DNA of 44,193 nucleotides from Parcubacteria group bacterium (lineage in GTDB: Bacteria > Patescibacteriota > Minisyncoccia > Minisyncoccales > UBA10102), in NCBI GenBank assembly GCA_016203945.1, contig JACQLT010000001.1, positions 72,645-116,837 of the forward strand, given 5' to 3'. Position 1 is the stretch's first letter. The number at the start of each line of letters is the position of its first letter. Below, in pieces: positions 4,548 through 44,193 of the stretch. The position numbers and the translations under genes were made by a program. The notes beneath the pieces were generated by a model. The model was not told the origin of the DNA, did not search any database, and was given only the letters and a program-made list of their open reading frames with translations.

Positions 4548-5822
4548 CTATTTCATATACTCTTTGATGCGTTCGTCAACGAGAAGTTTGGGGAACCCGT
4601 ATGCCAGCCTGCCAACGCGCACAACACTTTCTGTCGTTGCGGCATCGGCAACTCCTTCCGGAGGAAGACTAACCCCAGAGAAAGCTTCTGTGGTTTTCCC
4701 CTGCGCCATAAGTTTTATATAAAAATGGAATCGGGGAAGCGTAGTAAAATCTTCTTTCACAAAAGGAGTGAATTCTTTGCTTAATGTTTCTGCATCCTCT
4801 GCAGACACGGCAAATACCAGTACGGTACCCGTATTTCCCAGCACGGCATCCTGTATTTTTTTGGGCATCTGGCCGAAATACTGATTCGTCAGATGCACGC
4901 CGAGCCCGTACTTTCGGGATTCGCTCAGCATGGAAGCGAAGGTATCCGTAATGAAATTCTGAAACTCGTCCACGTACAGCAAAAAGGGCGTGCGCTCTTG
5001 AGCATCTTGGCGTGCACGCTTTAAAATGGCAGCCTGCAGTTTTGCCACCAAGATAAGGCCGAGCATCTGGGCGTTAATTTCTCCGATCTTTCCCTTCGAC
5101 AGATTTACCAGAAGAATCTTCTTCTGCGCAATAATGTCGTCAAACCGAAAGCTGCTCTCGCGATGCCCGATGATATTTCGCATGATGGCATTGTTCATAA
5201 AGTGCCCGAACTTCGACATAAAGTAGTTCAGCATTTCAGACCGGTGGAAGTCGGATGTTTTTGCCATCTGCTTGCTCCAAAACTCCAACACAAGAGGATC
5301 TTTTACATGCGCCCTCTTTTTTGCCTCGAAACGCTTGTCCACGAAAAGTTTTGGAATTTCGATGATGCTTCCTCCTTCAGAACCCGCCATGACGGTAAGC
5401 GCCGCATTTCGAAGCCAGTGCTCAAATTGCGGGCCGATAATTCCGGTTTTTTCAGGGTCAAAAAGCTTATAGAATATCTGGATGCACTCTGCCACCAAAA
5501 AATCTTTTTCCTGGTTGTCTTTTGCTTCCAGCAAGTTCAAACCAAAAGGATGCTGAATATCCGCAGGATCAAACAGAATAACGTCTTGCAGGCGATCTGC
5601 CGGAATGCGCCCGATAAGCCATTCGATAGAATCTCCGTGAGGATCTAAAAAGCAGACGCCCTGTCCATGCGTAATGTCTTGCAGACACATGTTCTGAAAC
5701 ACGGCAGACTTTCCGACCCCTGTTTTTCCCAGCATATACATATGAGAAAGCCGGTCTTGCCCATCGATGCGTATGGGAGTCACCTTGTTGCGGTATACGT
5801 TGTTTCCGATAACGACGCTCAT
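4548..5822 (-). CDS. Soluble P-loop ATPase of the type IV secretion coupling protein / TraG-TraD (DUF87-like) kind; no transmembrane segment visible
   Basis: Walker A LGKTGVGKS near the N-terminus, FLDPHGD, Walker B FLLYVDEFQNF, then RKYGLGVHLTNQ. This layout is typical of VirD4/TraG-like or HerA-like translocases. ATGA overlap with the upstream 79-aa gene. Confidence 0.7.
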   Translation of the reverse strand: MSVVIGNNVYRNKVTPIRIDGQDRLSHMYMLGKTGVGKSAVFQNMCLQDITHGQGVCFLDPHGDSIEWLIGRIPADRLQDVILFDPADIQHPFGLNLLEAKDNQEKDFLVAECIQIFYKLFDPEKTGIIGPQFEHWLRNAALTVMAGSEGGSIIEIPKLFVDKRFEAKKRAHVKDPLVLEFWSKQMAKTSDFHRSEMLNYFMSKFGHFMNNAIMRNIIGHRESSFRFDDIIAQKKILLVNLSKGKIGEINAQMLGLILVAKLQAAILKRARQDAQERTPFLLYVDEFQNFITDTFASMLSESRKYGLGVHLTNQYFGQMPKKIQDAVLGNTGTVLVFAVSAEDAETLSKEFTPFVKEDFTTLPRFHFYIKLMAQGKTTEAFSGVSLPPEGVADAATTESVVRVGRLAYGFPKLLVDERIKEYMK

Positions 5823-6058
5823 AATTTGCTTGAGTAGAATTTCTGCTGAAAGTATACGGGGTCTAACGGCAACGAATATTTCTGACGCGCCGCAAGCGCC
5901 AGCTCTTCCGATTCTGCAATGCGAAGCAGTTGATCACGCTCTTCTTGCAGCTTCTTTTCGATTGCGTCTACAAACTCTTTGCCCAAAAACTTCTGTACCC
6001 GCCCAAGTTCCTCCACCCGCGATCTATACAGCTGTTCTATTGTTTCTTTTGTGATCAT
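5819..6058 (-). CDS. Hypothetical 79-aa coiled-coil protein
   Basis: Both ends overlap the neighbouring genes as ATGA (5819-5822 and 6055-6058). Heptad-like charged sequence EELGRVQKFLGKEFVDAIEKKLQEERDQLLRIAESEELALAARQK. Confidence 0.7.
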   Translation of the reverse strand: MITKETIEQLYRSRVEELGRVQKFLGKEFVDAIEKKLQEERDQLLRIAESEELALAARQKYSLPLDPVYFQQKFYSSKL

Positions 6059-7713
6059 GCGGTTTCCTGTTTGTTCTGCAGTAAATGCTTCGTCATCAAA
6101 GTTTCACAAACCTCTTCTACGAAACGCTTTACGGGGCGCGCGCCAAACCGCGGATCTACCATGCCTGCAATTGCTTGAGAAAGAGTGGCTGGGTCTATTC
6201 GAAACGCTATGCGATGGTTCTGCAAACGGTCTTCGATCTTTTTGATTTCCAGCTTGCTGATTTCCAGAAGGTCTTCCAGCCGCAGGGGGTTGAATACAAG
6301 AATGGCGTCAAACCTATTCAAAAACTCGAGCCGAAAACGTTTTACAAGAAGCGGAATCAAAACCTCTTCTCTAAACTCTCTCCCATGAATATCGGCTCCC
6401 TGTTTTGAGGCTTCTAAAATTTCAGAAACCCCCAAGTTCGAAGTTGCCATCACAATGCTCTGTTTGAAATCTATGGTCTCTCCCTGGCCCGAGGTAAGCC
6501 TTCCGTCATCTATCACCTGTAAAAACATATCAAATACCTTAGGATGCGCTTTTTCTATTTCATCCAGCAAAATCAAACTATAAGGCTCTGCCTTAACGGC
6601 ATTGGTCAGCTCTCCTCCGGCTTCGTACCCTACGTATCCGGGAGGAGCTCCCACCAAACGCTGCCACCCGTGTTCTTGTCCGAACTCTGACATATCAAAC
6701 CTCGTAAAATTCTCTTTTCTTCCAAACACGAGCTGCGCAACGAGTTTTGCGGTTTCTGTTTTGCCCACCCCAGAGGGTCCAAGCAGTAAAAATGAACCCA
6801 AAGGTCTTGCGGGGTTGCGGAGTCCGAGCCTGGCTCTCCGAAGGACGCCTGCGATAGCTGCAACGGCAGGCTTTTGGTTTATAATCCTCTGGTTCAATTC
6901 TCCTTCCAGTTTCTGCACAAGCTCTAAATCATTTTGCTCCAGCTGCTGCAAGGGAACTCCTGTCTTGTCGCTCAATACGGCCAGCACATCCGCAACGCCC
7001 AGCGTTTTTCGCTTCAAGCGGCTCGCTCTCCCCATAGATTCATCAAGCACAGAAATGGCAGCTCTTGGTAGACGCCCAAGGCTCGGAAAACGCTCTGCAT
7101 ACGAAAGAATCGTCTGCAGTGTTTCTTCTGAAACTTCCATGGGTTGTCCTTGCTGAAAAGAAACAGCTGCCAGCTCCAAAATTTTCATATACTCTCTTGC
7201 GGTCTGCTGCTTAAGATGAATACGCTCAAAAAACTGAACAAAATTCTGGTCTTCGTGTTCCATCCAAACAAGTTCCTGGGGCAACACTCCAAGAATCACC
7301 TGCACGTCTGATCGCTTTACCAGCGTGCTCAACAGCCGCACCGTCTGTTGAAATATGGCTGCCTTGTTGTAGATCAAAGAACCGAATGAGTCGATAAACA
7401 GCACACACGAAGGAATTCCGGCAAACGCTTCCTGATAGCGCGGAAATGCGGCAGCGTTCGAAATCCCGTACAAACCCTCTGCTTCTATACGAATAACTCT
7501 CAAAGAACTTTGCGTGTTTGCCGCCCAACCATGCACCAACATGGTTTTCCCAGAGCCAGAGGGGGCCACTACCATGCAGTTGTTGCGGCTGGTTCTGCCA
7601 ATAACGCTCGACAAACGCTCTTGCTCTTCTTCTCTTCCTACAATCTTAAAAAATCTCTGATGCTTGGCTTCCAGGCCAAGATCGTAATATTCTATTTTTT
7701 GAAATTCTGCCAT
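6055..7713 (-). CDS. Clp/Hsp100-like double AAA+ ATPase lacking the N-domain and M-domain; D1 looks catalytically degenerate
   Basis: D2 is canonical: LLLGPSGVGKTETAKLVA, GAPPGYVGYEAGGELT and LILLDEIEKAHPKVFDMFLQVIDDGRLT. D1 has Walker A APSGSGKT but VLFIDSF where Clp D1 has IDE. At 552 aa it is shorter than ClpA or ClpB as I recall them (roughly 750-860 aa). Confidence 0.8.
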   Translation of the reverse strand: MAEFQKIEYYDLGLEAKHQRFFKIVGREEEQERLSSVIGRTSRNNCMVVAPSGSGKTMLVHGWAANTQSSLRVIRIEAEGLYGISNAAAFPRYQEAFAGIPSCVLFIDSFGSLIYNKAAIFQQTVRLLSTLVKRSDVQVILGVLPQELVWMEHEDQNFVQFFERIHLKQQTAREYMKILELAAVSFQQGQPMEVSEETLQTILSYAERFPSLGRLPRAAISVLDESMGRASRLKRKTLGVADVLAVLSDKTGVPLQQLEQNDLELVQKLEGELNQRIINQKPAVAAIAGVLRRARLGLRNPARPLGSFLLLGPSGVGKTETAKLVAQLVFGRKENFTRFDMSEFGQEHGWQRLVGAPPGYVGYEAGGELTNAVKAEPYSLILLDEIEKAHPKVFDMFLQVIDDGRLTSGQGETIDFKQSIVMATSNLGVSEILEASKQGADIHGREFREEVLIPLLVKRFRLEFLNRFDAILVFNPLRLEDLLEISKLEIKKIEDRLQNHRIAFRIDPATLSQAIAGMVDPRFGARPVKRFVEEVCETLMTKHLLQNKQETA

Positions 7714-7722
7714 ATAAGTTTA

Positions 7723-9525
7723 CTATGCAGCCAGTCTCACAAGGGTAATCCCTCCCATTTCAAATTCTTCTTCTGTCACAGCTTTCTTCTGCGTCTGCAC
7801 ACCTCCCCGAGACCGACCCACTTCTCTCAAAGACCGCTCCATCCCCGCTCTCCTCTCCCCACTTTCTCTTTTTTCCTCTTGGAACTTAACTAAGTCAAGC
7901 TCTATCCCCGTTTCTTCTTTTTCTTTGACCAGATTGAGCTTAGCTAAGCTAAACTCTACCCGCTCTCCACTCTCAGATATCTCCGCAATCGTCTCCACCT
8001 GGCTTCTCTCCATACGATCTTCAACGAACCGTTCTGCAAAAACAGGTTCTTGTTTTTGACCTCTGCTTTCTACGGCCTCGGTTCGAACTTCCACGGGTCG
8101 TTCCTGTAAAATTTCTGCCTCGCCAACTTCTTCCACTTCTTCTACTCGTGTTTCTTCTACATGTATTTCATCTTCAACAACACTCACTTCCTCATCAGCC
8201 AAAACTTCTTTTTCTACAGAATCCCCCTTCTCTAACAGAGAATCTCTTTCTGTGAGCGAAGCGAAAAATTCTTCCAAATCTTTTTCTTCTGATATTTCCT
8301 TAACTACGTTAAGTTTCTCCTGCGGTACGCTTGTTGGATTTTCAATGGTTGGTCGTTCTTCTACAAGTGATGCAAAAAAATCTTGTAAATCTCGTTCTTT
8401 TTCTATTGTTTCCCTAACCGAGTTAAGGATAGGTGATTCTTCTACTGTTTCTATTATCTCTGTCCGCTCCGCCCTTGTTTCTAATTCAGGATCTTGGTAT
8501 GTGGCGGTTTCCGTGTGCGGAATTTCCATTCGTACGCTAAGAATCGGCCCCCAAAACGGAGAATTCTGCAACGCAGCAGGAATTTCTTGTTGAAATATCT
8601 CTTTTTCCTGCTGCGATTCTTCTGTCGCCTGAGTCGGAACTTCAACCCCAGATTCAAACCCCGAAAAAGTATTTTCTGGCGAGATTTCTTGTAGGAGCTT
8701 AACCGAGTTAAACTCCACTTCTGTAAGTCCCACTACAACAGTGTCAAGAGCTTCTTCATCTATAGAAACTTGTATCTCTTGTGAAACGGGGGGTTCAATT
8801 TTTGCATCACCTCCTAATTCATCTTCTTCTCGAGCTTCAGCGTGAGCTTCGACAGATTGTTCTGCAAAAATAGGTTGCGCAACTCCTTCTTGCTGTTCCT
8901 GCGTTTCTTCTTGCTGAATTTGAGCGACTTCTTGCGGCTCGGCTATTGGTTCGACCGGAGCTTCTTCATTCCCCAGAAACTGCTCTTGCTCTTCTTTTAT
9001 TTCCCGAGACCAGGTTTCAGAAACTACCACATTGTCCTGCTCCAGCCAAAGAGCTGTCACATGAAGAATATGGCCAGCTTCTGTTTCTTCTTTATAGTCC
9101 ACGAGCTGTACTTCGTTTGCATTAGAACTCCATGTTTCGTTTATAGAATGATGCAAGGCGATTTGTTCTGGTGTTGCCTCTTCTTCTATCTGTTCTGTGA
9201 TAGAACGTTCGGTATCTTTTTCCGCGTTCCATAGTTTTCCGTCTCGAAAAACCATAGAAGGAGCCTCGGTATGCGTTTTTTCCCATTCCTTTGAATCACC
9301 CCCGAATCGGGCAATGATTTCTTCTAACGTATCCGGTTTTTCTAGATCTGCTCCCTCTTCTTGAAAAGAAGAATTTTGTTCGGGCCCGTTCTCTCCTTGT
9401 TGTTCCTTTTCCTCCCCTACACGAGCAAACTCAACCGGATCTATCTCATCTACGCGCTCTCCTTCAAACCCCAAATCCTCTACATCCTCTTCTTCTACTC
9501 CAATTGTGGGTGTTTCTATAGACAT
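7723..9525 (-). CDS. Hyper-acidic (Glu-rich) ~600-aa hypothetical protein with internal repeats; no signal peptide or TM segment seen
   Basis: Long ORF 7723..9567 whose track start is a TTG. The first ATG gives MSIETPTIGVEEEDVEDLGFEGE. Roughly one residue in four is Glu by eye. Repeats include KERDLQDFFASL / EEKDLEEFFASL and EFSLAKLNLVKEKEE / IELDLVKFQEEKRE. Confidence 0.75.
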   Translation of the reverse strand: MSIETPTIGVEEEDVEDLGFEGERVDEIDPVEFARVGEEKEQQGENGPEQNSSFQEEGADLEKPDTLEEIIARFGGDSKEWEKTHTEAPSMVFRDGKLWNAEKDTERSITEQIEEEATPEQIALHHSINETWSSNANEVQLVDYKEETEAGHILHVTALWLEQDNVVVSETWSREIKEEQEQFLGNEEAPVEPIAEPQEVAQIQQEETQEQQEGVAQPIFAEQSVEAHAEAREEDELGGDAKIEPPVSQEIQVSIDEEALDTVVVGLTEVEFNSVKLLQEISPENTFSGFESGVEVPTQATEESQQEKEIFQQEIPAALQNSPFWGPILSVRMEIPHTETATYQDPELETRAERTEIIETVEESPILNSVRETIEKERDLQDFFASLVEERPTIENPTSVPQEKLNVVKEISEEKDLEEFFASLTERDSLLEKGDSVEKEVLADEEVSVVEDEIHVEETRVEEVEEVGEAEILQERPVEVRTEAVESRGQKQEPVFAERFVEDRMERSQVETIAEISESGERVEFSLAKLNLVKEKEETGIELDLVKFQEEKRESGERRAGMERSLREVGRSRGGVQTQKKAVTEEEFEMGGITLVRLAA

Positions 9526-9567
9526 AATAAAAAATCGCCCATCCCGAGGCGAACAAACGTTGCGCAA

Positions 9568-9822
9568 AGCAACCGCGTATTCTCCTGCTCGGGAGCACTA
9601 TCCCTATTTGGTATTCTGACTTATCGCTCTGCCTATTGGCAGAGAGAATCACAGTTGCGGCACAGTCCAGGATTTACACCTGACTTCCCCAAACAGATCT
9701 AACCTTTGTAAAACTGCCTGCCGTTTCTAATTTCATGATGGATTGCCGCACCCAACCAGTCAACCCTACAACCCCTAGCCAATTGTGGAAAAACAAATAC
9801 TCACCGAAGCGTCTGGTCTGGT
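9568..9822 (-). promoter_or_regulatory. Long (~250-300 nt) non-coding leader with several stem-loops upstream of the acidic-protein operon; candidate regulatory leader or small RNA
   Basis: No credible ORF. Gene-strand helices seen: CTCTGCC-AATA-GGCAGAG; TCCCGAG...CTCGGGA enclosing GTTGC-TTTGC-GCAAC and followed by a TTTTTTATT run just before the ATG; and a long-range UGCGGCA/UGCCGCA pairing. Confidence 0.3.
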
Positions 9823-9823
9823 A

Positions 9824-9857
9824 GTGTATATTTCTAACAATTGTTAGAAATATACAC
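9824..9857. promoter_or_regulatory. Perfect 34-bp palindrome GTGTATATTTCTAACAA|TTGTTAGAAATATACAC; candidate operator (core CTAACAATTGTTAG), with a second copy upstream of recA
   Basis: Read directly. It is 29/34 identical to 44150-44183. It lies between the FAD-oxidase stop (9891) and the leader of the acidic-protein operon. Confidence 0.6.
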
Positions 9858-9890
9858 TGTTTGTCTTGAAAGACTTTTCTTTGTTCGCGG

Positions 9891-12367: not shown

Positions 12368-13513
12368 CTATTCCAGGGGAGCTTTTAGGTATTTTGCAAA
12401 AAACGTCAATGTTTTCTTCCACGCGTCCTTGGTAGCTTCGGGAGCGTAGTTGGCGCCAGAAGGGTTTGCAAAGGCATGCCCGACACCAGGATAGATATTG
12501 ATCTCTTGAGCAATATTGGATGTTTGAAGCTGCTGCTTGAATTCTTCCACCTGAGCCACGGGGATCGCCTGATCCTGATCTCCGAAAATGCCGAGTACGG
12601 CTCCTCTGATGGAAGCAAGCTTTTGATCGCGCACCAGCGGAGTTCCGTAGTAGATGACAGCGGCTTTGATATCTTCATTTGTCATGGCAAGTTGCAATGA
12701 TTGCCCTCCGCCGAAACACCACCCTATCGTTCCCACGACGGGCGTATTCTCTTGGTATCTCAGGTACGAGACGGCGGCCTGCATATTCGCAACGGCCTGC
12801 TCCTGATTCACCGAAGCGACAAGAGCACGGGCCCTGTCCGGCTCTTCGGCAACTTCTCCTCCATACAGGTCTGCCGCAAGGACGACGTATCCCTGGGCAG
12901 CTAACTCTTTTGCCATGTCTTTCATGCCCTCGTTCAGTCCCCACCACTCATGGACCATGACCACGCCAGGATACGCTCCCCCTTCCTTGGGACGCGCCAA
13001 AAAGCCCTTTGCGTTTTCAACATAGTTCACCTGCGAGGTTGCAACTTCGTACAGCGGGTGTTTCAATGCGTCTGCGTTGTTCATTGGTATATTAATAAAT
13101 GTTGTGCCCGCGATGGCGACGGCAAGAAGGAATATGGCGAAGCTTGCTCCTGCGGATATCAGGCAGTATTCGCACCAGCTCTTGAGCACGAACGCCTGGA
13201 TGAAAATCAGCACAAGCGAGAAAAGCGCGGATCCGGCCGCAACCCCGAGAAACAGAAGGAGAAACAAGGGAATTGAAAGGAGCTGCACTCCCGCCAATGC
13301 GAGAACGCCAAGCGCCGTTACGCCACCATAGTATAGCACTCCGATTGCTTCATTTGGAACACCGAACATCCTGCTGTACCTGCTGTGCACCACCACGTTG
13401 CACCCTTTATCAATGTGGCAGGTCAAGGGTTCCTTCCTGCTTTTCTTGATGAAGATGTAGAGGGAAGCCGCGAGCCCGAGGAGTCCGAATAGAATAAATG
13501 CGCCGGGTATCAT
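12368..13513 (-). CDS. Fusion protein: N-terminal VKOR-like membrane domain plus C-terminal dienelactone hydrolase domain
   Basis: VKOR part: loop cysteines CHIDKGC, active-site WCEYC in a TM helix, and 4-5 hydrophobic helices. DLH part: PGVVMVHEWWGLN, nucleophile motif GTIGWCFGGG, and later GDQDQ and YPGVGHAF. Confidence 0.8.
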   Translation of the reverse strand: MIPGAFILFGLLGLAASLYIFIKKSRKEPLTCHIDKGCNVVVHSRYSRMFGVPNEAIGVLYYGGVTALGVLALAGVQLLSIPLFLLLFLGVAAGSALFSLVLIFIQAFVLKSWCEYCLISAGASFAIFLLAVAIAGTTFINIPMNNADALKHPLYEVATSQVNYVENAKGFLARPKEGGAYPGVVMVHEWWGLNEGMKDMAKELAAQGYVVLAADLYGGEVAEEPDRARALVASVNQEQAVANMQAAVSYLRYQENTPVVGTIGWCFGGGQSLQLAMTNEDIKAAVIYYGTPLVRDQKLASIRGAVLGIFGDQDQAIPVAQVEEFKQQLQTSNIAQEINIYPGVGHAFANPSGANYAPEATKDAWKKTLTFFAKYLKAPLE

Positions 13514-14787: not shown

Positions 14788-16620
14788 TTAGAGGGTTCCG
14801 GAAGGAGGTAGAGATTGCTGATATTGTTCTTGATATTGTTGTTCTTGCTGTTGCTGGTATTGCTGCTGATACTGTTCTTGGTACTGTTCTGAGGAAGGGG
14901 GCGAAGGCTGCTCCTGTTTATATTGCTGATATTGTTCTTGATATTGTTGTTCTTGCTGTTGCTGGTATTGCTGCTCATATTGCTGCCGAATCTGCTCTTC
15001 GGAAGGAGGCGCGCTCCGCTCCCCTTGCGGAAACTGGTCCTGTTGTCCTTCTTCTCCCTGCTGCTGCTGGGCAATACACGCATCCAGCTTTGCCTGGATG
15101 TCAGGATTTAATCCGTGCTCTTCTCCCTGCGACTCCCCTCCTTCAGGTTTGGGGAGCGCTTGGAAGCACGCGAGCATTTCCTCGCAGGATTTTGCTACGC
15201 ATTCGTTCATCTGCGATTCAGATTTTGTTCTTTGCTCTACTACGCAAGATTCTAATCTTCCTTTAATGTCTGGGCTGAGATCAAGACCTGAAAGATCGCC
15301 GCCGCCACTACCTGGTCTTACCCCAACTTGCAATCCTTGCATGCAAGCTAAGGCTTCCTCGCACGGCTTTGCCACGCATTCATGCAACTGTTCTTCTACG
15401 TCTGAGAAATAGGGCTCCACGCATCCTCTGACTTTGTCGTTGAACTCAAACGCGTCAGAACCAAGTTCAAGCCGTCCTGAGCGAATTTGATCAATCTTTT
15501 CTTGCCCTAATGTATCGCCCAAGCAAGAAACGATTTCTGGTGGAGCCGTATCGAGCGCCTTTTTAAAGGCGGCTGCTCCCTGTGCCTCAAAACACGACTT
15601 CATGCGTAGCCCTATTTCGGGGCCCGGAATGAGGGTGCCTGCGTTGATTTCCTGGATGATGTTTTCTCCCACCGTCGCCTTCAAACACTCAAGAACCTCG
15701 GGGGGAGTTTCCCTCAAAGCGGCGCGGATCTGCTCGGTTCCCTTTTGGATGGTTTCCATCTGATCCTCGTCTAACAAATCGTGCTCTTTTGCAAAGGCAA
15801 AGCATGCCTCCAGATTCTCGGGATTGTTGCAGTATGCTTCGCAAGCTTTCTTTGATTTGCATCCTCCAGGTCCCCCTTGACTTCCTACCTTCCTCGCGAT
15901 TGCAACTTCGTCTTTGCTGATGAACCCTGCTTTTTCCGCAAAAGCGATGCATGCGTCAAAGTTCGCCTCTACCGCGCAGAAAGATTCGCACTCGTCTTTT
16001 GAGCGGCAGCCGCCCGGAGTTTCCCCTTTTGCCAAAAGCCCCATGAAGGTGGAAAATTCTGCCTGATCTTGCTCATTCAAGAATCCTGCTTCTTTGGCGA
16101 AATTGAAGCATTCAGCCGTGTTCTCGGCATTAGAGCAATACGCAAAACAAGCGTCTTTGCCGCGGCAGTCGCCAGGCATTTTGCCGCCCTGATTCAAGTA
16201 CGCGGCAACTCTTCTTGCCTCATCCAACTCTTGAGGATCATCAATCAAGTTGTTTTTCTCCACAAAGTCGAGGCAGGTGTTCAAATTATGCACATCAGCG
16301 CAATACTTGTAGCACTCTTCGGTGCTTTTGCACCAGCCGGTGCCCCCGGAAACAGCGGACTTGGTAAATTGCTTTGCGCCTTCAATCTCCTCATCTGAAA
16401 CAAGGTTGTGCTGTATGGCAAAATCCCAGCAGACCCCTATCCGATTTTCCGGTTTGTCGCAAAACGCGCGGCATTCCACCTCGTTTCGGCAACCGCCCAG
16501 TTCTGTAACAGGATAGACAATGTCGAGAGCAGAAGACGCCTGCACCACAAACACAGATACTGCGACGAGAGCGACGCTAAAAAGGATTGCAGAAACAATG
16601 GGCCGGGACTCTTGTTTCAT
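14788..16620 (-). CDS. Exported or anchored cysteine-repeat protein with a Gln/Tyr/Glu-rich repetitive C-terminus (no family recognised)
   Basis: N-terminal signal anchor. Five ~50-aa modules with the pattern C-x5-C-x3-C-x8/9-C (for example CRSKDECESFCAVEANFDACIAFAEKAGF). Duplicated PPE(V/I)xxCL and ECVAKxCEExLAC units, then a QQYQQQQEQQYQEQYQQ tail. Confidence 0.8.
   Translation of the reverse strand: MKQESRPIVSAILFSVALVAVSVFVVQASSALDIVYPVTELGGCRNEVECRAFCDKPENRIGVCWDFAIQHNLVSDEEIEGAKQFTKSAVSGGTGWCKSTEECYKYCADVHNLNTCLDFVEKNNLIDDPQELDEARRVAAYLNQGGKMPGDCRGKDACFAYCSNAENTAECFNFAKEAGFLNEQDQAEFSTFMGLLAKGETPGGCRSKDECESFCAVEANFDACIAFAEKAGFISKDEVAIARKVGSQGGPGGCKSKKACEAYCNNPENLEACFAFAKEHDLLDEDQMETIQKGTEQIRAALRETPPEVLECLKATVGENIIQEINAGTLIPGPEIGLRMKSCFEAQGAAAFKKALDTAPPEIVSCLGDTLGQEKIDQIRSGRLELGSDAFEFNDKVRGCVEPYFSDVEEQLHECVAKPCEEALACMQGLQVGVRPGSGGGDLSGLDLSPDIKGRLESCVVEQRTKSESQMNECVAKSCEEMLACFQALPKPEGGESQGEEHGLNPDIQAKLDACIAQQQQGEEGQQDQFPQGERSAPPSEEQIRQQYEQQYQQQQEQQYQEQYQQYKQEQPSPPSSEQYQEQYQQQYQQQQEQQYQEQYQQSLPPSGTL
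14814..14975. repeat. Direct repeat inside the Q-rich tail coding region: two identical 54-nt copies (14814-14867 and 14922-14975), period 108 bp
   Basis: attgctgatattgttcttgatattgttgttcttgctgttgctggtattgctgct is read twice. Confidence 0.9.
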
Positions 16621-32110: not shown

Positions 32111-32989
32111 TCAGCGCTTGAACATACGCCTGGCCAGGGCTTTCAAAAATAGGTATGCAAGGAACAGGGCGAACGCATACAGGATAATCTCGGTTTTCAG
32201 AACGAATGCGGCCGCAGAAAGAGAGGCAAGATAGAAAGAGGCCTTGGTTTTCTCCGTACTGTTTGCCTCGGGGTTTCCATTGAGAGTATCCAGCTGCTGC
32301 CTTGCTTGTTCTTGCTTCTGCTCTACCTGCTCTTTCACGGGAGCTAACAAACTTTGTGCCGCAGCATGAATCTCAGATATTGGTTTCTCAACTGCCTCAG
32401 GAAGCAGGGCTATGATCGTATCTGTTATATCGGTCTGTTCTGAAGGAACAGCGTTCTCTTCTTCGGAAATTGGCGAGGAAGCTGCAAGCGGATCCGTTCC
32501 TTCGCTGAGCTCCTGAGCATCTGATGTACCGTCGTTGTCGTCATCTGTATCCGTGTTGTTTCCGATCCCGTCCTTATCTGTATCCTTCTCAACCTGGCGC
32601 AAGCTTTCTTGCGCTCTTGCCTGCTGAAGCTCTATTGCGACCGGAGAACCTCCCACGCGTATGACAGAGACCTTTGTGATAACAGCTTCTATAAGGTGCT
32701 CCCCTTCAGTCGCGCTCCAGTCAACCCACACCTGCGTGAACTTGCCTCCGCGCTCCACAAAAAAATCAGATGACCCGATGGAGTTTTTGTTATCCAAAAA
32801 CTCAATGGCGCCTGCAATGTCTTCGCTCCCGCTGTTAAAAAGAGCCGCGTATACGCGAACCGTTTCTCCCGCAAAGAACGGGTCTTTTGAATACCAGATG
32901 CCTCCCTGCAGGAATCCCGCGTTGGAAAGAGGTTCGGCAAAAACAAACGCGGGAATAGCCAGGAAAAAAACCATGAGAAGCGTTTTCAT
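32111..32989 (-). CDS. Secreted protein with an Ig-like (CARDB-like) N-domain, a thrombospondin-type-3-like Asp-rich Ca-binding motif and a C-terminal TM anchor
   Basis: Signal peptide MKTLLMVFFLAIPAFVFA, DTDKDGIGNNTDTDDDNDGTSDAQE, and C-terminal hydrophobic helices. Confidence 0.65.
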   Translation of the reverse strand: MKTLLMVFFLAIPAFVFAEPLSNAGFLQGGIWYSKDPFFAGETVRVYAALFNSGSEDIAGAIEFLDNKNSIGSSDFFVERGGKFTQVWVDWSATEGEHLIEAVITKVSVIRVGGSPVAIELQQARAQESLRQVEKDTDKDGIGNNTDTDDDNDGTSDAQELSEGTDPLAASSPISEEENAVPSEQTDITDTIIALLPEAVEKPISEIHAAAQSLLAPVKEQVEQKQEQARQQLDTLNGNPEANSTEKTKASFYLASLSAAAFVLKTEIILYAFALFLAYLFLKALARRMFKR

Positions 32990-35863: not shown

Positions 35864-35934
35864 GGGCGTGGCGGAATTCCCCCCACACCCCCCTTCCGCC
35901 GCGCCCTCGCTTGGACGGACGGAATTTTCGGCGG
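35864..35934 (+). repeat. Left copy of a ~72-bp GC-rich structured repeat (GGCGTGGCGGAAT-Cn-ACACCCCCCTTCCGCCGCGCCCTCGCTTGG...AATTTTCGGCGG)
   Basis: Aligns to the reverse complement of 38547-38619 with a few substitutions and indels. It has an internal 10-bp stem GGCGTGGCGG/CCGCCGCGCC. Confidence 0.85.
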
Positions 35935-35941
35935 CTGACTA

Positions 35942-37609
35942 CTATTTAATATCACAAAATTGCTCTCCTGTAGTCATCAAGTAATCCCATACAACATAAC
36001 TATTTATATACTTAATCTCACTTTCTGACAGGTTGAAAATATTTTGATTAATGTATTTTTGTAAGTACTCGTCATTTGATCTTTGCACGGCATCCTTAGT
36101 CAATTCTTTTATCACAGAATTTTCCTCAGCAGTAATGCCAGGAAAAGGGAGTGCCATCAGACTTTCTTTGGCAATCTTGTTTACTCCACCGAATAATTTT
36201 AAATGTAAATACGAGTATAAATTAGAATTCAAAAATGCCATGACCGTATAAATATCAAAGTCTGAGATTTTAGGAATAATTATATTTGCACTATTACTCG
36301 TCAATGATCCAGTTGTATCTATGGCGACTTTTAGATATTTATTTATGGTTTTATATACGAGCTTCTTAGATGCTCTGTATATTTCATCGGGCGCAACTTG
36401 TTGTAAGTTGTTCCTATCAAAAACAATATAGTTCTTTGGGGAGAGAAGTTTATACTTTTCAACTTCTTTTCCAGTATAGATATGTTCTGCGCCCGAAATT
36501 TTCTGGTCCAGTAATTTAGTTTTGTTATCACCAGTAACTACTCCTAAACCAAAAATGCTGCGAGATAAATCATATTTCTTTAGCTTATTAACCTTTTCAA
36601 TAATTGCTATATCCTGCTCGGTTAGGTGGACAAAAATGTGATTTTGGAAACCTTTAAATAAATCTTTTGGAATAACTGTTGTAATTTTATTTACAAATAG
36701 CATTTGATTACTTTTCGCGTGGTTCAACTCAATCAAATAAACATCGGACATTACTCCAGAAAATTTCTTTGAGTACCTCTTGATTTTCTTTAGATTAGTT
36801 TGTCCGAGTATAAAATCTCTGATATCAGTATGCCTTTTGACATTCAATAATGCTTCAGGCAGTAGATATCTAAACACACCATCTTTCTTTAGTAATTTAT
36901 ATCCAAACTCAATAAAATAAGAAAAACTTTCTCCGGACATTACGTGCTCCGTGGGAATTTTAGACAAATCCAAATTAGCACCATATGGCGGGTTGCTAAT
37001 GATGTAATCAAATCTTAAATTTTTATTTTTTAGAAACCATACGAAAAAGTCATCACAATAAAGATTCGGTGATTTTGCCGTAGGAAATTTGATGAAGTAA
37101 TTAAATTTTGCAATCATTATCGCAATCGGATCGTTGTCAATTCCAAATATCTGATCCGACGGCGCGTTAGAACGGAACAGGAATGATCCCGATCCGCAAG
37201 CTGGATCAAAAATGATTTGCCCAGAAGAAAAATCCAAATCGCCGACAAAATCTTCTGCTATTTCACCACCGGTATAGAAAGACCCTTTTTCTAGATTTTC
37301 CTTTTTCGAGTTTAGATATTGATAGGCTGACCCCAATAAATCAAATTCATTCCTTGAGATATTCCCAATCGCAATTATTTTATAGTCATATTCGGAAAGA
37401 AATTGTTTTACTGCCGGATTTTTATTCCCTTTCAATAGTTGGCACCCGATTGAAAATAATAGTTGTTCTTTTGGGACATTGAAATCCAGCAAAGACTGCA
37501 AAAAGTGAACAACGCCCGCTTCCTTTATGTTGTGAATTGGAATTGTGTGCTCAGAATTTAATCTGAGGTGTTTAGATCGGTTTTGTATTGTTGTGTTTTT
37601 TACTAACAT
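35942..37609 (-). CDS. N6-adenine DNA methyltransferase, gamma class (Eco57I/TaqI-like) with a C-terminal target-recognition domain
   Basis: Motif I IIFDPACGSGSFLF, motif IV IISNPPYGANLD, and a long C-terminal TRD. 555 aa. Confidence 0.88.
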   Translation of the reverse strand: MLVKNTTIQNRSKHLRLNSEHTIPIHNIKEAGVVHFLQSLLDFNVPKEQLLFSIGCQLLKGNKNPAVKQFLSEYDYKIIAIGNISRNEFDLLGSAYQYLNSKKENLEKGSFYTGGEIAEDFVGDLDFSSGQIIFDPACGSGSFLFRSNAPSDQIFGIDNDPIAIMIAKFNYFIKFPTAKSPNLYCDDFFVWFLKNKNLRFDYIISNPPYGANLDLSKIPTEHVMSGESFSYFIEFGYKLLKKDGVFRYLLPEALLNVKRHTDIRDFILGQTNLKKIKRYSKKFSGVMSDVYLIELNHAKSNQMLFVNKITTVIPKDLFKGFQNHIFVHLTEQDIAIIEKVNKLKKYDLSRSIFGLGVVTGDNKTKLLDQKISGAEHIYTGKEVEKYKLLSPKNYIVFDRNNLQQVAPDEIYRASKKLVYKTINKYLKVAIDTTGSLTSNSANIIIPKISDFDIYTVMAFLNSNLYSYLHLKLFGGVNKIAKESLMALPFPGITAEENSVIKELTKDAVQRSNDEYLQKYINQNIFNLSESEIKYINSYVVWDYLMTTGEQFCDIK

Positions 37610-38198
37610 GTTGCTCTGATAACTCTTTGTATATATCCGTCATTTCTTGATAGGTAACGGTATCTTTCAGGTTATTATCCAAATGCCACTGTATGTTGCT
37701 CTTGGTTATGCCAAATTGGCCGCTTTTACCCACCTCATCATAACGTCCATGCCTATCGCTCCAATTAGAAAATTTTCCAGTGGAAATATCTTCTCTCCTC
37801 GCCAAGAATATTTTAACACAATCCCCAAAAAGCAGAACATATATGAGGTAATCAAAGTGATCCCTTTTTACATTTTGGACATTAGCCAAATACTCAGCCG
37901 TTTTGCACTCGCTAAACGGAACTAGCCGATTCGTTTCTAGGTTATTATTTTCGAACAGTATCCTTTCTATTATTGTTTTTAGTTTTTTCACATTACCAGA
38001 TGCTTTAAGAACCTTGCATGCCTTTATCTCGTATCGTTTACCGTCTTGGTCTGTTGCATCGTGATCATTTCCTTTCGGTTCATTGAGGTTATATTTCTCT
38101 CGCACAAACGGCTCAACATACTGCTCGCCGTAAGACCTGCTAGGGGCAAGAAAAAGACCATCGCGAATTTTCTTTACAATGTCGTCAATAATTTCCAT
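37572..38198 (-). CDS. Putative type II restriction endonuclease (PD-(D/E)xK candidate)
   Basis: A 208-aa orphan lying between the controller and the methyltransferase. DATDQDGKRYEIKACK fits D...ExK. Overlaps the methyltransferase start by 38 nt. Confidence 0.55.
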   Translation of the reverse strand: MEIIDDIVKKIRDGLFLAPSRSYGEQYVEPFVREKYNLNEPKGNDHDATDQDGKRYEIKACKVLKASGNVKKLKTIIERILFENNNLETNRLVPFSECKTAEYLANVQNVKRDHFDYLIYVLLFGDCVKIFLARREDISTGKFSNWSDRHGRYDEVGKSGQFGITKSNIQWHLDNNLKDTVTYQEMTDIYKELSEQHVSKKHNNTKPI

Positions 38199-38199
38199 A

Positions 38200-38421
38200 T
38201 TATTTTAGAAAGAAACCTAAATCTTTCTTATAAATTCGCGCGAACTCTTTAAGCGCAACGATATCAATACGCCTCTGTCCGGCTTCTACTTTTGAGACAT
38301 GAGACTGTGTCTTTCCGAGCAATTTAGCTACATCCGCCTGATCTAAACCGGTCTCTTGTCGAGCTTTCCTTAACTGCTCGACTGTATATTTATGGTCTTT
38401 TGAGTAAATTGCTTTACTCAT
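38200..38421 (-). CDS. XRE-family HTH protein, likely R-M controller (C) protein
   Basis: 73 aa, with LRKARQETGLDQADVAKLLGKTQSHVSKVEAGQRRIDIVALKEFARIY. Its stop is 1 nt before the endonuclease start. Confidence 0.75.
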   Translation of the reverse strand: MSKAIYSKDHKYTVEQLRKARQETGLDQADVAKLLGKTQSHVSKVEAGQRRIDIVALKEFARIYKKDLGFFLK

Positions 38422-38632: not shown

Positions 38633-38722
38633 TGGCGGTGGGGGAGAGATTCGAACTCTCGATGCCCTTTCGGACATAGCTGCTCTCCAAGCAGCCGCAC
38701 TAGGCCACTATGCGACCCCACC
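38633..38722 (-). tRNA. tRNA-Ser (anticodon GGA), long variable arm, CCA encoded
   Basis: GGTGGGGTCGCATAGTGGCCTAGTGCGGCTGCTTGGAGAGCAGCTATGTCCGAAAGGGCATCGAGAGTTCGAATCTCTCCCCCACCGCCA. Anticodon loop UUGGAGA, variable-arm hairpin, 90 nt. Confidence 0.92.
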
Positions 38723-44077: not shown

Positions 44078-44149
44078 ATCTCAATCTATTATACGCAATA
44101 TCGAGACAAAACACTACCCAACCCCCTACATATACCAACCGCTATGCGA

Positions 44150-44183
44150 GTGTATTTTTCTAACAATTGTTATATTTTTACAC
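44150..44183. promoter_or_regulatory. 34-bp quasi-palindrome GTGTATTTTTCTAACAATTGTTATATTTTTACAC, starting 73 nt upstream of the recA ATG; candidate SOS-type operator
   Basis: 29/34 identical to the perfect palindrome at 9824-9857. The shared core is CTAACAATTGTTA, with shared ends GTGTA/TACAC. Confidence 0.55.
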
Positions 44184-44193
44184 TCTTATAGCT

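Follow-up and report, generated by a model that had tools for sequence, protein, structure and literature searches.

A conserved Patescibacterial operon encoding two ATPases and a hyper-acidic protein lies behind a predicted cobalamin riboswitch

A five-part module consisting of a cobalamin riboswitch, a hyper-acidic protein, a truncated Hsp100, a small helical protein, and a soluble type IV coupling protein (T4CP)-like ATPase is kept across many of the ultra-small Patescibacteria (CPR). The module was analyzed in a 44,193-nucleotide stretch of DNA from a Parcubacteria group bacterium (the window). It appears to encode a previously undescribed machine with two motors and a hyper-acidic partner protein, seemingly turned on at B12 shortage. 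The searchable literature gave no description of the operon or of its B12 control, and the initial annotation of this DNA had likewise not recognized the gene combination as a known system. Our best reading is tentative, with a probability of about 0.38: a B12-repressed cytoplasmic unfoldase and translocase machine would act on the co-encoded acidic protein as its client, and the client would be exported or deployed on the surface.

Four tightly packed ORFs on the minus strand encode the hyper-acidic protein (7723–9525), an Hsp100/ClpB-like double-AAA+ ATPase (6055–7713), a 79-residue protein (5819–6058), and a soluble P-loop ATPase with a T4CP/HerA fold (4548–5822). The junctions in operon order are TAG-9 nt-ATG followed by two ATGA overlaps, and these coordinates bear out the original description of four co-directional, closely packed genes. 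VirB4, relaxase, pilin, and ClpP genes were said to be missing nearby, and none is present among the 25 annotated ORFs of the window. The gene order recurs with unrelated flanks in 64 of the 80 Patescibacteria species genomes that have a T4CP-like homologue. The remaining 16 genomes carry a membrane-anchored paralogue of about 850 residues in a different cluster. The ClpB-like gene lies directly upstream of the T4CP-like gene in all main-clade genomes (64/64), an arrangement far beyond chance. The initial annotation had let its proposal of one coupled unit outside canonical clusters hang on synteny in relatives, and the 64/64 result answers that question decisively: the module is self-contained, conserved, and separate from any canonical conjugative type IV secretion system (T4SS) or Clp protease cluster. 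It is present once per locus with housekeeping genes as flanks in the 80 loci examined.

The leader is predicted from Rfam, our own covariance model, and covariation to be a cobalamin riboswitch whose platform consists of a terminator and an alternative antiterminator. The aptamer and a conserved 3' UCCCGAGCAGGA element (CCCGAG at 9594–9589) occupy positions 9579–9703 of the minus strand. The window aptamer scores 33.2 bits against Rfam AdoCbl-II (E = 4.6e-6), about 3 bits under the gathering score of 36.5, which counts against B12 control; its score with our own covariance model is 108 bits. The homologous leaders exceed the Rfam gathering scores in 7/7 relatives tested. Our model finds the riboswitch in 42 of the 43 loci having enough upstream sequence, with one match per locus that always lies on the operon strand and immediately precedes the acidic gene, and no matches elsewhere in 1.3 Mb. 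Compensatory changes occur in 22/27 pairs, the share of paired cells is 90.6% compared to 68% in shuffles, and the covariation score is 0.527 versus ≤0.146 in controls. The leader has the aptamer core GGGAAG..GGUG.AA..CC..CUGUGCCGCAACUGU...AGUCAGA.CGCC in common with the cobalamin riboswitches of Rfam clan CL00101 (AdoCbl RF01482, AdoCbl-II RF01689, and Cobalamin RF00174), along with the 3' CCCGAGCAGGA element and a terminator-based expression platform. The module differs from known cobalamin riboswitches in its targets, which are an Hsp100/T4CP/acidic-protein operon rather than transporters, cob/cbi genes, or known B12-independent isozymes. A structured leader of ~260 nt had been noted earlier; the structure was correctly seen and its identity as a cobalamin riboswitch was missed.

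A promoter-like site (TTGACT-17-CATCAT; 9735–9763, minus strand) was located by consensus scan, and its -35 and the flanking GGTTGTAGGGTTGACT are kept in the closest syntenic relative (L089). An intrinsic terminator (UCGCC-UCGGGAU-GGGCGA plus U6; 9529–9552, minus strand) lies directly before the ATG, and many relatives have the same architecture. The terminator CUCGGG has an alternative partner in the upstream CCCGAG, giving an antiterminator, and this alternative is conserved in relatives. These features predict a transcriptional OFF switch. The CCCGAG:CUCGGG antiterminator would form without ligand and the operon would be read; by analogy to known cobalamin riboswitches, bound B12 would make the aptamer hold CCCGAG so that the terminator forms. 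The operon genes would therefore be made only under B12 scarcity.

The acidic protein has 600 residues from the ATG; a start at the TTG at 9567 would lengthen it to 614. It contains 22.3% Glu with a net charge of -104 and a pI of 4.2. Kyte-Doolittle hydropathy over 19 residues peaks at 0.97, indicating that there is no transmembrane (TM) segment or signal-like stretch, and composition and hydropathy thus match the ~600-residue Glu-rich protein described at the outset. Pfam and PDB searches gave no match for 48 family members. Family identity is ~15–20%; the N-terminal region is weakly conserved and the basic/hydrophobic C-terminal tail of the window protein ends in GGITLVRLAA. This charge-inverted C terminus, ending in GITLxxAA, is conserved in the family as the consensus LNGIT[LM]xxAA, accompanied by a basic segment of ~60 residues. 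In 44/48 proteins, charge is more positive in the tail than in the body, and an -AA end is found in 33 of 54 tails compared to 6.7% of background ORFs. The C terminus looks like a recognition signal. Its hydrophobic -AA end is similar to the ssrA tag, and VirB/D4-type T4SS substrates have a similar net-positive, unstructured C-terminal segment. Unlike these tags and secretion signals, the tail belongs to the genomic coding sequence of a single dedicated protein family, and we know of no described degron or signal that matches LNGIT[LM]xxAA. The 79-residue protein looks helical from its sequence and has a conserved C-terminal motif of the (Y)SFVLDPxYFxQKF type; Pfam and PDB searches with it gave no match.

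The ClpB-like protein (552 residues) matches Pfam AAA_2 (7e-55) and ClpB_D2-small. Its profile aligns with ClpB residues 159–446 and 520–826 and with ClpA residues 175–721. It has two AAA+ modules like ClpB/Hsp104 and ClpA/ClpC, but differs from them in missing the N-domain and M-domain and is smaller than the ~760–860 residues of Hsp100 unfoldases. Without an M-domain, no Hsp70 coupling is expected. The D1 domain is degenerate. Its Walker B reads FIDSF in the window protein and FIDDF in the family consensus, and therefore lacks the catalytic Glu; D1 also has no conserved pore-loop Tyr. D2 is canonical and complete and aligns with ClpB D2 at a domain score of 373 bits, with the GYVG pore loop, Walker A/B, sensor motifs, and ClpB_D2-small in common. 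Inspection of the window D2 sequence did not find the IG(F/L) ClpP-docking loop. The profile alignment and motifs agree with the two-ring unfoldase of the initial annotation, which had already noted the missing N-domain, M-domain, and ClpP-docking loop and the loss of the Walker-B glutamate in D1.

The T4CP-like protein (424 residues) matches Pfam TrwB_AAD_bind and TraG-D_C above cut-offs, with a DUF87 match at the N terminus, Walker A GKTGVGKS, and Walker B LYVDEF. It has no TM segment. An AF2 model (pLDDT 81.7) is nearest to DotL, Cag-beta, TrwB, and HerA, in keeping with the TraG/VirD4/HerA-like translocase without a membrane anchor that had been suggested. T4CPs (TrwB, VirD4, DotL, and Cag-beta) are the best structural matches (TM-score 0.52–0.63; Foldseek E ~1e-9 to 1e-7). 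A small helical partner gene adjoins the T4CP-like gene, like CagZ for Cag-beta and IcmS/W for DotL. In contrast to T4CPs, the protein has no N-terminal TM domain, is unlinked to VirB4, relaxase, or other T4SS genes, and is unusually conserved (56–71% identity across Patescibacteria lineages) and riboswitch-controlled. The TM-anchored ~850-residue paralogue is separate and occurs in other Patescibacteria, a group for which 5,713 VirD4-like genes have been reported (Quinonero-Coronel et al. 2025, PMC12102498). HerA/FtsK-type translocases (HerA-NurA, HerA-Sir2, and HerA-DUF4297) give comparable fold-match scores (9x1m, 4d2i, and 8wj3) and are also soluble with DUF87. Unlike HerA systems, the module has an Hsp100 partner in place of NurA, Sir2, or DUF4297, and a HerA-type N-terminal barrel is not demonstrated.

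In the proposed mechanism, the ClpB-like hexamer would grip the charge-inverted, hydrophobic -AA tail of the client with its active D2 ring, and the role of D1 would be limited to nucleotide-dependent assembly. The unfolded polyanionic chain would be passed to the T4CP-like hexamer, with the small helical protein as a putative adaptor or regulator by analogy to CagZ–Cag-beta and IcmSW–DotL. We infer contact between the two ATPases and binding of the tail to either one as parts of this proposal. No module part has a membrane segment, so the last step of delivery would need a membrane channel whose genes lie outside the module; the Patescibacterial T4SS and the paralogue cluster are candidates. 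The output would be an acidic protein exported or surface-deployed under B12 limitation. The initial proposal of an unfoldase feeding a hexameric translocase with acidic cargo is strengthened by the conserved tail. The synteny with differing flanks, the riboswitch and its conserved platform, the complete D2 and degenerate D1 without a ClpP loop, and a fold nearest to T4CPs working with small partners (DotL, Cag-beta, and TrwB) all favor the client machine. Export is purely what we infer, because no membrane component, channel, or VirB4 is in or near the module in the neighborhoods examined, and a B12 dependence of secretion has no explanation. The high identity of the T4CP-like protein compared to a supposedly fast-evolving cargo is more easily reconciled with a universal substrate, for example DNA.

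The operon could instead be a B12-independent bypass for deoxynucleotide supply, a possible but doubtful reading in which derepression follows once B12 no longer suffices for class II ribonucleotide reductase. As a DNA translocase, the T4CP/HerA-like hexamer would then take up or process scavenged DNA, and the polyanion would be a DNA mimic, plug, or regulator removed by the unfoldase via its -AA tail. Comparative genomics of B12 regulons shows that riboswitches repress genes for uptake or else for B12-independent substitutes, which suits a bypass. So do the T4CP-like identity across classes, at a level usual for motors whose substrate is universal, the fold match to HerA DNA translocases, a weak NCBIfam match to the DNA-translocating ATPase CedD, and an upstream element common to the operon and recA in the window genome, a link that is not conserved. 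In locus L008, nrdR, class II nrdJ, cobA, and comEC come after the module, but ribonucleotide reductase genes adjoin it in just 2 of ~45 loci and competence genes do not recur there. ClpB-type D2 rings thread polypeptides rather than DNA; the module has no nuclease or DNA-binding domain, and the DNA-mimic role is conjecture. Acquisition of B12 or cobalt is the commonest class among B12-riboswitch targets, and Patescibacteria lack B12 synthesis but have genes for B12 enzymes, such as nrdJ and cobA in L008. The Glu-rich protein may bind metal or corrinoid or capture a host B12-binding protein, with the ATPases loading, stripping, or remodeling it, which would place the operon in the acquisition branch of the B12 regulon. 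CobT and BchD, both chelatase subunits, contain acidic stretches. This acquisition role is improbable: neither a transporter nor a substrate-binding protein was detected, nor any known B12-binding motif or domain, with 0 Pfam matches in the 48 acidic proteins, membrane parts are absent, and the ATPases are of the Hsp100 and T4CP types, not the MoxR/chelatase type. We also find it unlikely that the tail is simply an ssrA-like ClpXP/ClpAP degron giving a short half-life and fast shut-off when B12 returns, with the two ATPases working on something else. Tails finishing in -LAA, -RAA, or -IAA look like the end of the ssrA tag, and in one locus (L058; n = 1) a tmRNA tag ending in -ALA accompanies an acidic protein ending in -AFA. 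However, the conserved motif with its basic segment reaches well past the last two residues, and the strict pairing with a gene for a non-proteolytic Hsp100 points to a dedicated partner. Degenerate conjugative or anti-phage defense modules, HerA-type or other, are a very remote alternative. In its favor are weak PADLOC matches to mad8, HerA, and PDC-M37B and PHROG matches to phrog_5156 and phrog_4871. The PADLOC matches span generic P-loop regions only, and phage homologues, which come from Bacillus phages, are ≤28% identical. The single copy per locus between housekeeping genes, the very strong purifying selection, and the absence of integrase, relaxase, and effector nuclease argue against a mobile or defense origin.

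Regulation by DNA damage was proposed initially from a 34-bp perfect palindrome with its sole window relative upstream of recA. The palindrome AGTGTATATTTCTAACAATTGTTAGAAATATACACT (9823–9858, no strand assigned) is perfect, but its length is 36 bp. The relative (44149–44184, no strand assigned) is identical at 31/36 positions and lies ~70 nt upstream of the start of recA, whose identity was confirmed. Two matches in the window compared to 0.02 expected by chance, and a promoter-proximal architecture common to both upstream regions, favor an SOS-inducible machine; a GGGGTTG box similar to the operon promoter region is also upstream of recA. We nevertheless consider SOS control quite improbable, and the proposal is unsupported because neither the closest syntenic relative nor any of the 89 loci has the palindrome. 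It lies ~60–80 nt upstream of the conserved -35 and not over the promoter, and the annotated window ORFs include no LexA gene. What is conserved as a control element is the riboswitch, so the conserved signal would be B12 availability, not DNA damage. The second copy is related to the operon palindrome and is not part of the module. The palindrome itself is a strain-specific upstream element outside the conserved module, possibly an operator.

The four ORFs of the operon lie on the minus strand at the positions given in the initial annotation, and an ORF check confirms both their extents and their tight packing. The acidic protein gene (7723-9525) and the ClpB-like gene (6055-7713) are joined as TAG-9 nt-ATG at 7725/7713, and the small protein gene (5819-6058) and the T4CP-like gene (4548-5822) follow through ATGA overlaps at 6058/6055 and 5822/5819. 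This module occupies about 5.5 kb of the genome. The remaining genes of the window have housekeeping functions and include pentose-phosphate genes, recA, groEL, rpoD, dnaG, and bipA. As claimed earlier, VirB4, relaxase, pilin, and ClpP are all absent from the annotated genes of the window.

More than 3,799 homologues of the T4CP-like protein were found, and the best 120 were characterized. These 120 are all ~425 aa and 66-72% identical, except two at 100% and 86%, and they come from Magasanik-, Doudna-, Kaiser-, Wolfe-, Pace-, and Colwellbacteria, among others. A scan of GTDB species genomes yielded 80 loci, and the proposed linkage extends to these relatives: a ~553-aa ClpB-like gene lies immediately upstream of the T4CP-like gene in 64 of the 80. 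The ORF between these two genes encodes mostly 76-113 aa, and a large acidic ORF (240-1,021 aa, D+E mostly 15-29%) heads the module. Sequence identity declines steeply from the T4CP-like protein (56-71% across classes) through the ClpB-like protein (38-63%) and the small protein (~20-40%) to the acidic protein (~15-20%). The flanks vary, with rpiB in the window and in the closest syntenic relative (L089), recG in the Patescibacteria locus L005, and nrdR-nrdJ in L008; these differing flanks indicate that the module is self-contained. No B12, RNR, competence, or T4SS neighbor recurs among 132 flanking genes of relatives. Together with the leader described below, the four genes constitute a conserved five-part module across Patescibacteria.

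The other 16 loci (L067-L069, L073-L076, L078-L083, and L086-L088; for example L068:7786-10323) encode a ~850-aa T4CP-like paralogue with one N-terminal TM helix that belongs to a different conserved cluster. The paralogue is 53-55% identical to the T4CP-like protein within the ATPase part. Its cluster contains a further ATPase of T4CP/VirB4-like type (~1,040 aa), several proteins of 600-1,200 aa without a Pfam match, and a sigma70_r4/HARE-HTH protein, and it has neither a ClpB-like gene nor a riboswitch.

The initial annotation described a structured leader ahead of the operon. The structure stands, and its identity, which that annotation missed, is predicted to be a cobalamin riboswitch. The window leader matches Rfam AdoCbl-II at 9601-9705(-) with 33.2 bits (E = 4.6e-6) against a gathering score of 36.5. 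The same aptamer core lies upstream of the acidic gene in relatives, and all seven relatives' leaders that were tested score above Rfam gathering thresholds (42-67 bits) with AdoCbl RF01482 (up to 67 bits), Cobalamin RF00174, or AdoCbl-II. A family-specific covariance model (R1) built from 10 leaders gave 52 matches over 83 sources. Each matched locus has a single one, which always shares the strand of the operon and directly precedes the acidic gene. The window scores 108 bits with R1, and there are no matches in the paralogue loci or elsewhere in 1.3 Mb. The riboswitch is present in 42 of the 43 main-clade loci with enough upstream sequence. In the one remaining locus, L049, a weak and divergent cobalamin-like core occupies the corresponding position. 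Covariation is strong: in an alignment fitted to the model, compensatory changes occur at 22 of 27 pairs, 90.6% of cells are paired compared to 68.1% in shuffles, and the covariation score is 0.527 compared to at most 0.146 in controls (at most 0.14 in slid ones).

The aptamer is followed on its 3' side by a conserved UCCCGAGCAGGA, a hairpin containing CUCGGG, and a U-run. The U-run directly precedes the ATG in many relatives, a spacing that favors ATG 9525 as the start of the acidic protein in the window. Folding shows that the terminator (9552-9535 plus U6) cannot form when CCCGAG and CUCGGG pair as an antiterminator. The riboswitch is most likely a transcriptional OFF switch, a direction suggested by its architecture. 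Conservation of both the aptamer and the platform points to B12 as the conserved regulatory input. No description of a cobalamin riboswitch in Patescibacteria, or before such genes, was found in the searchable literature. In some riboswitch copies (L021:4373-4575 and L053:468-672), insertions of ~80 nt enlarge the variable hairpin that separates the aptamer core from the B12-box region; this peripheral stem therefore tolerates large expansions. The sole recurrent neighbor is a PaaX-like small protein (8 of the 132 flanking genes). This PaaX_M-domain protein of ~140-175 aa is encoded in the same direction immediately 5' of the riboswitch in at least eight relatives (L036:4462-4962, L016:3995-4522, L065, L077, L028, L020, L057, and L061), and may regulate the operon as an additional, protein-based factor. 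The window has no PaaX_M homologue.

The ClpB-like protein (552 aa) matches Pfam AAA_2 (7e-55) and ClpB_D2-small (8e-12) and has the GYVG pore loop, which places it in the Hsp100 class-1 superfamily. It scores far under the equivalog cut-offs for ClpB, ClpA, and ClpV; with NCBIfam TIGR03346 (ClpB) the score is 371 bits and the cut-off 1232. The AF2 model (pLDDT 86.5) has two alpha/beta modules. A 24-sequence profile aligns to Thermus thermophilus ClpB (1qvr) at residues 159-446 (D1) and 520-826 (D2), and to ClpA residues 175-721. The alignment starts at ClpB residue 159 and skips the M-domain, and thus the reported absence of an N-domain and an M-domain is correct. The D1 Walker A motif is kept across 61 orthologues. 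The loss of the D1 Walker-B Glu is also evident, as the window protein reads FIDSF and the 61-orthologue consensus FIDDF, and D1 has no conserved pore-loop Tyr in these orthologues. D2 is fully canonical (GPSGVGKT, LLDEIEKAH, GAPPGYVGY, and GARPVKR), and GAPPGYVGY is invariant. The D2 region 426-460 contains no IGF/IGL and aligns with the loop-less ClpB D2, in agreement with the reported lack of a ClpP-docking loop. Unlike canonical ClpB, this protein has a dead D1 and neither an N- nor an M-domain.

The T4CP-like protein (424 aa) scores 28.3 bits with TrwB_AAD_bind (cut-off 20.5) and 27.3 bits with TraG-D_C (cut-off 22), and it also matches DUF87. The AF2 model (pLDDT 81.7, pTM 0.84) consists of a P-loop NBD with the T4CP fold and an all-alpha domain. 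Its nearest structures by Foldseek are DotL, Cag-beta, and TrwB, followed by HerA and VirB4, with TM-scores of 0.5-0.63. The maximal KD19 value is 1.63 at residue 249, inside the NBD, and the N-terminus is not hydrophobic, which supports the claim that the protein has no membrane anchor. No VirB4/T4SS or relaxase linkage exists in the window or among the 132 flanking genes of relatives. The protein therefore differs from a canonical T4CP in having neither a TM anchor nor T4SS linkage. It also differs from HerA systems in that NurA, Sir2, and DUF4297 are missing and its partners are instead the Hsp100, the small helical protein, and the acidic protein. The small protein has no Pfam match and no PDB profile match with E below 0.25, and its C-terminal motif, (Y)SFVLDPxYFxQKF, is conserved.

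The acidic protein of the window (600 aa) is 22.3% Glu with a net charge of -104 and a pI of 4.2. No hydrophobic segment was detected, as expected from the annotated lack of a TM segment and signal peptide. There are no Pfam matches across 48 family members, the family profile finds nothing in the PDB, and a word-indexed search with the N-terminal region returned one fragment only. Conservation is confined to a weak N-terminal region (~residues 65-185 of 600) and the extreme C-terminus, which has the consensus L-N-G-I-T-[LM]-x-x-A-A-COOH. An -AA end is found in 33 of 54 distinct tails compared to 6.7% of background ORFs. In contrast to the strongly acidic body, the last ~60 residues carry a neutral to basic charge, and in 44 of the 48 proteins the tail has a more positive charge than the body. 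The tail resembles an ssrA tag in its end and T4SS C-terminal signals in its positive charge, and may be recognized by an ATPase. From its sequence, the acidic protein appears to be a dedicated client of the module. A candidate FF short linear motif was rejected as an artefact of the terminator U-run translated in over-extended ORFs. One locus contains a tmRNA (L058:16280-16670) whose ssrA tag ends ...VPALA, and the acidic protein of the same genome (L058:3156-5558) ends ...EVAFA, whereas -AA is the usual end of the other acidic proteins. Possibly the tail follows the local tag end (n = 1), an anecdotal hint since only one tmRNA lies within the loci.

What the data show is a conserved module under B12-type riboswitch control that pairs a two-ring AAA+ protein, with one ring active and the other degenerate, with a soluble protein of T4CP fold and an acidic partner that carries a tag. 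We propose that B12 scarcity would allow transcription of the operon, that the D2 ring of the ClpB-like protein would grip the C-terminal tail and unfold the acidic protein, and that the T4CP-like hexamer would pass it on to a membrane channel encoded elsewhere. The small protein would be an adaptor or regulator of the T4CP-like hexamer, comparable to CagZ with Cag-beta or IcmSW with DotL. We assign a probability of about 0.38 to this reading of an unfoldase and a translocase that act on an acidic client under B12 scarcity. The main rival, which we consider unlikely, is that the T4CP/HerA-like motor moves DNA as part of a B12-independent deoxynucleotide route with the acidic protein as a DNA mimic or plug. 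The extreme conservation of the motor and the recA link in this genome fit a DNA motor, but DNA-related neighbors do not recur among the flanking genes and an Hsp100 threads protein. Less likely explanations are B12 or cobalt trafficking, a plain ClpXP degron, a defense or mobile element, and SOS control. For anti-phage defense, PADLOC gave only generic P-loop/AAA matches (mad8 at 3e-12 and PDC-M37B on the AAA_2 region) and nothing for the acidic or small protein, and this candidate was rejected. A phage origin was also rejected; the PHROG leads are at most 28% identical, come from Bacillus/Geobacillus phages, and have an uninformative context.

The case for SOS control came from a palindrome upstream of the operon. 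The palindrome is perfect and linked to recA as reported, but it spans 36 bp (9823-9858) rather than 34. Its only relative in the window (44149-44184) lies ~70 nt upstream of recA and is identical at 31 of 36 positions, so there are two matches where 0.02 are expected by chance. A look-up of the exact RecA protein found no record. The palindrome is absent from L089, which is fully syntenic with a T4CP 86% identical and keeps the -35 region, riboswitch, and terminator. It is likewise missing from all 89 loci, no conserved palindrome or operator was found in relatives, and the element sits 5' of the -35 and not over the promoter. These data do not support the suggested DNA-damage control of the module, and co-regulation of the operon with recA is possible in this strain. 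A GGGGTTG box is common to the operon and recA upstream regions (9760-9790 and 44100-44125), ~10 nt 5' of the putative -35. This box could be a promoter element particular to the lineage or an additional binding site.

Every part of the module comes from a known family, yet each departs from the canonical systems in key respects. The combination had not been recognized as a described system, and no description of the assembly, its B12 control, or the tagged acidic partner was found in the searchable literature, nor any paper that connects T4CPs and Clp-like ATPases with cobalamin riboswitches in Patescibacteria. Patescibacteria account for a large share of bacterial diversity with ~1 Mb genomes, and the majority of their conserved 'hypothetical' genes have no explanation. 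The module genes are unmentioned in the Southlakia Tn-seq paper, a PNAS perspective (PMC11665869), and a metatranscriptome paper. A survey of patescibacterial T4SSs counted 5,713 VirD4-like genes, of which only 148 lie close to virB4, and raised possible exaptation without mention of Clp or AAA partners (PMC12102498). The module gives a defined context and partners to thousands of such 'orphan' genes (PMC12102498). Tentatively, it may be an undescribed Patescibacteria-specific machine in which a B12 riboswitch governs a truncated Hsp100 and a soluble, exapted T4SS coupling ATPase that process a self-encoded, C-terminally tagged polyanion as the main response of these ultra-small symbionts to B12 starvation. 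If so, the acidic protein might be deployed to or through the envelope, or the cell switched to DNA scavenging, for example, and the module would have no counterpart in known secretion, proteolysis, or B12-regulon systems; the chance that it is a categorically new machine is substantial, though less than even. B12 limitation is a concrete, testable signal for this dark-matter operon, whose organisms rely on hosts for cofactors, and the cobalamin regulon is widened to a gene class never tied to B12 before. In Patescibacteria, the natural riboswitch might be put to use for inducible gene expression, a need explicitly voiced in the PNAS 2024 perspective (PMC11665869).

Several other features of the window were observed. 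The rpiB gene starts at about 4512, ~36 nt past the T4CP-like stop codon (4548), with no recognizable terminator between them, and it is followed by rpe, tkt, and pfkB. In this lineage and L089, these pentose-phosphate genes could receive readthrough from the B12-controlled promoter. Two minus-strand ORFs, one of 610 aa (14788-16620) and one of 292 aa (32111-32989), do not match any Pfam family at E <= 1e-5. The region 35900-38200 is a low-GC islet (GC 0.32-0.36 compared to about 0.50 elsewhere) that adjoins a tRNA at 38636-38722. It contains two minus-strand ORFs, an N6_Mtase/Eco57I/TaqI_C-type methylase (35942-37609) and an unannotated 208-aa ORF (37572-38198), and is probably an acquired restriction-modification island. 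A single 381-aa ORF (12368-13513) fuses a VKOR domain to a dienelactone-hydrolase domain, and the two are separate adjacent genes in L089.
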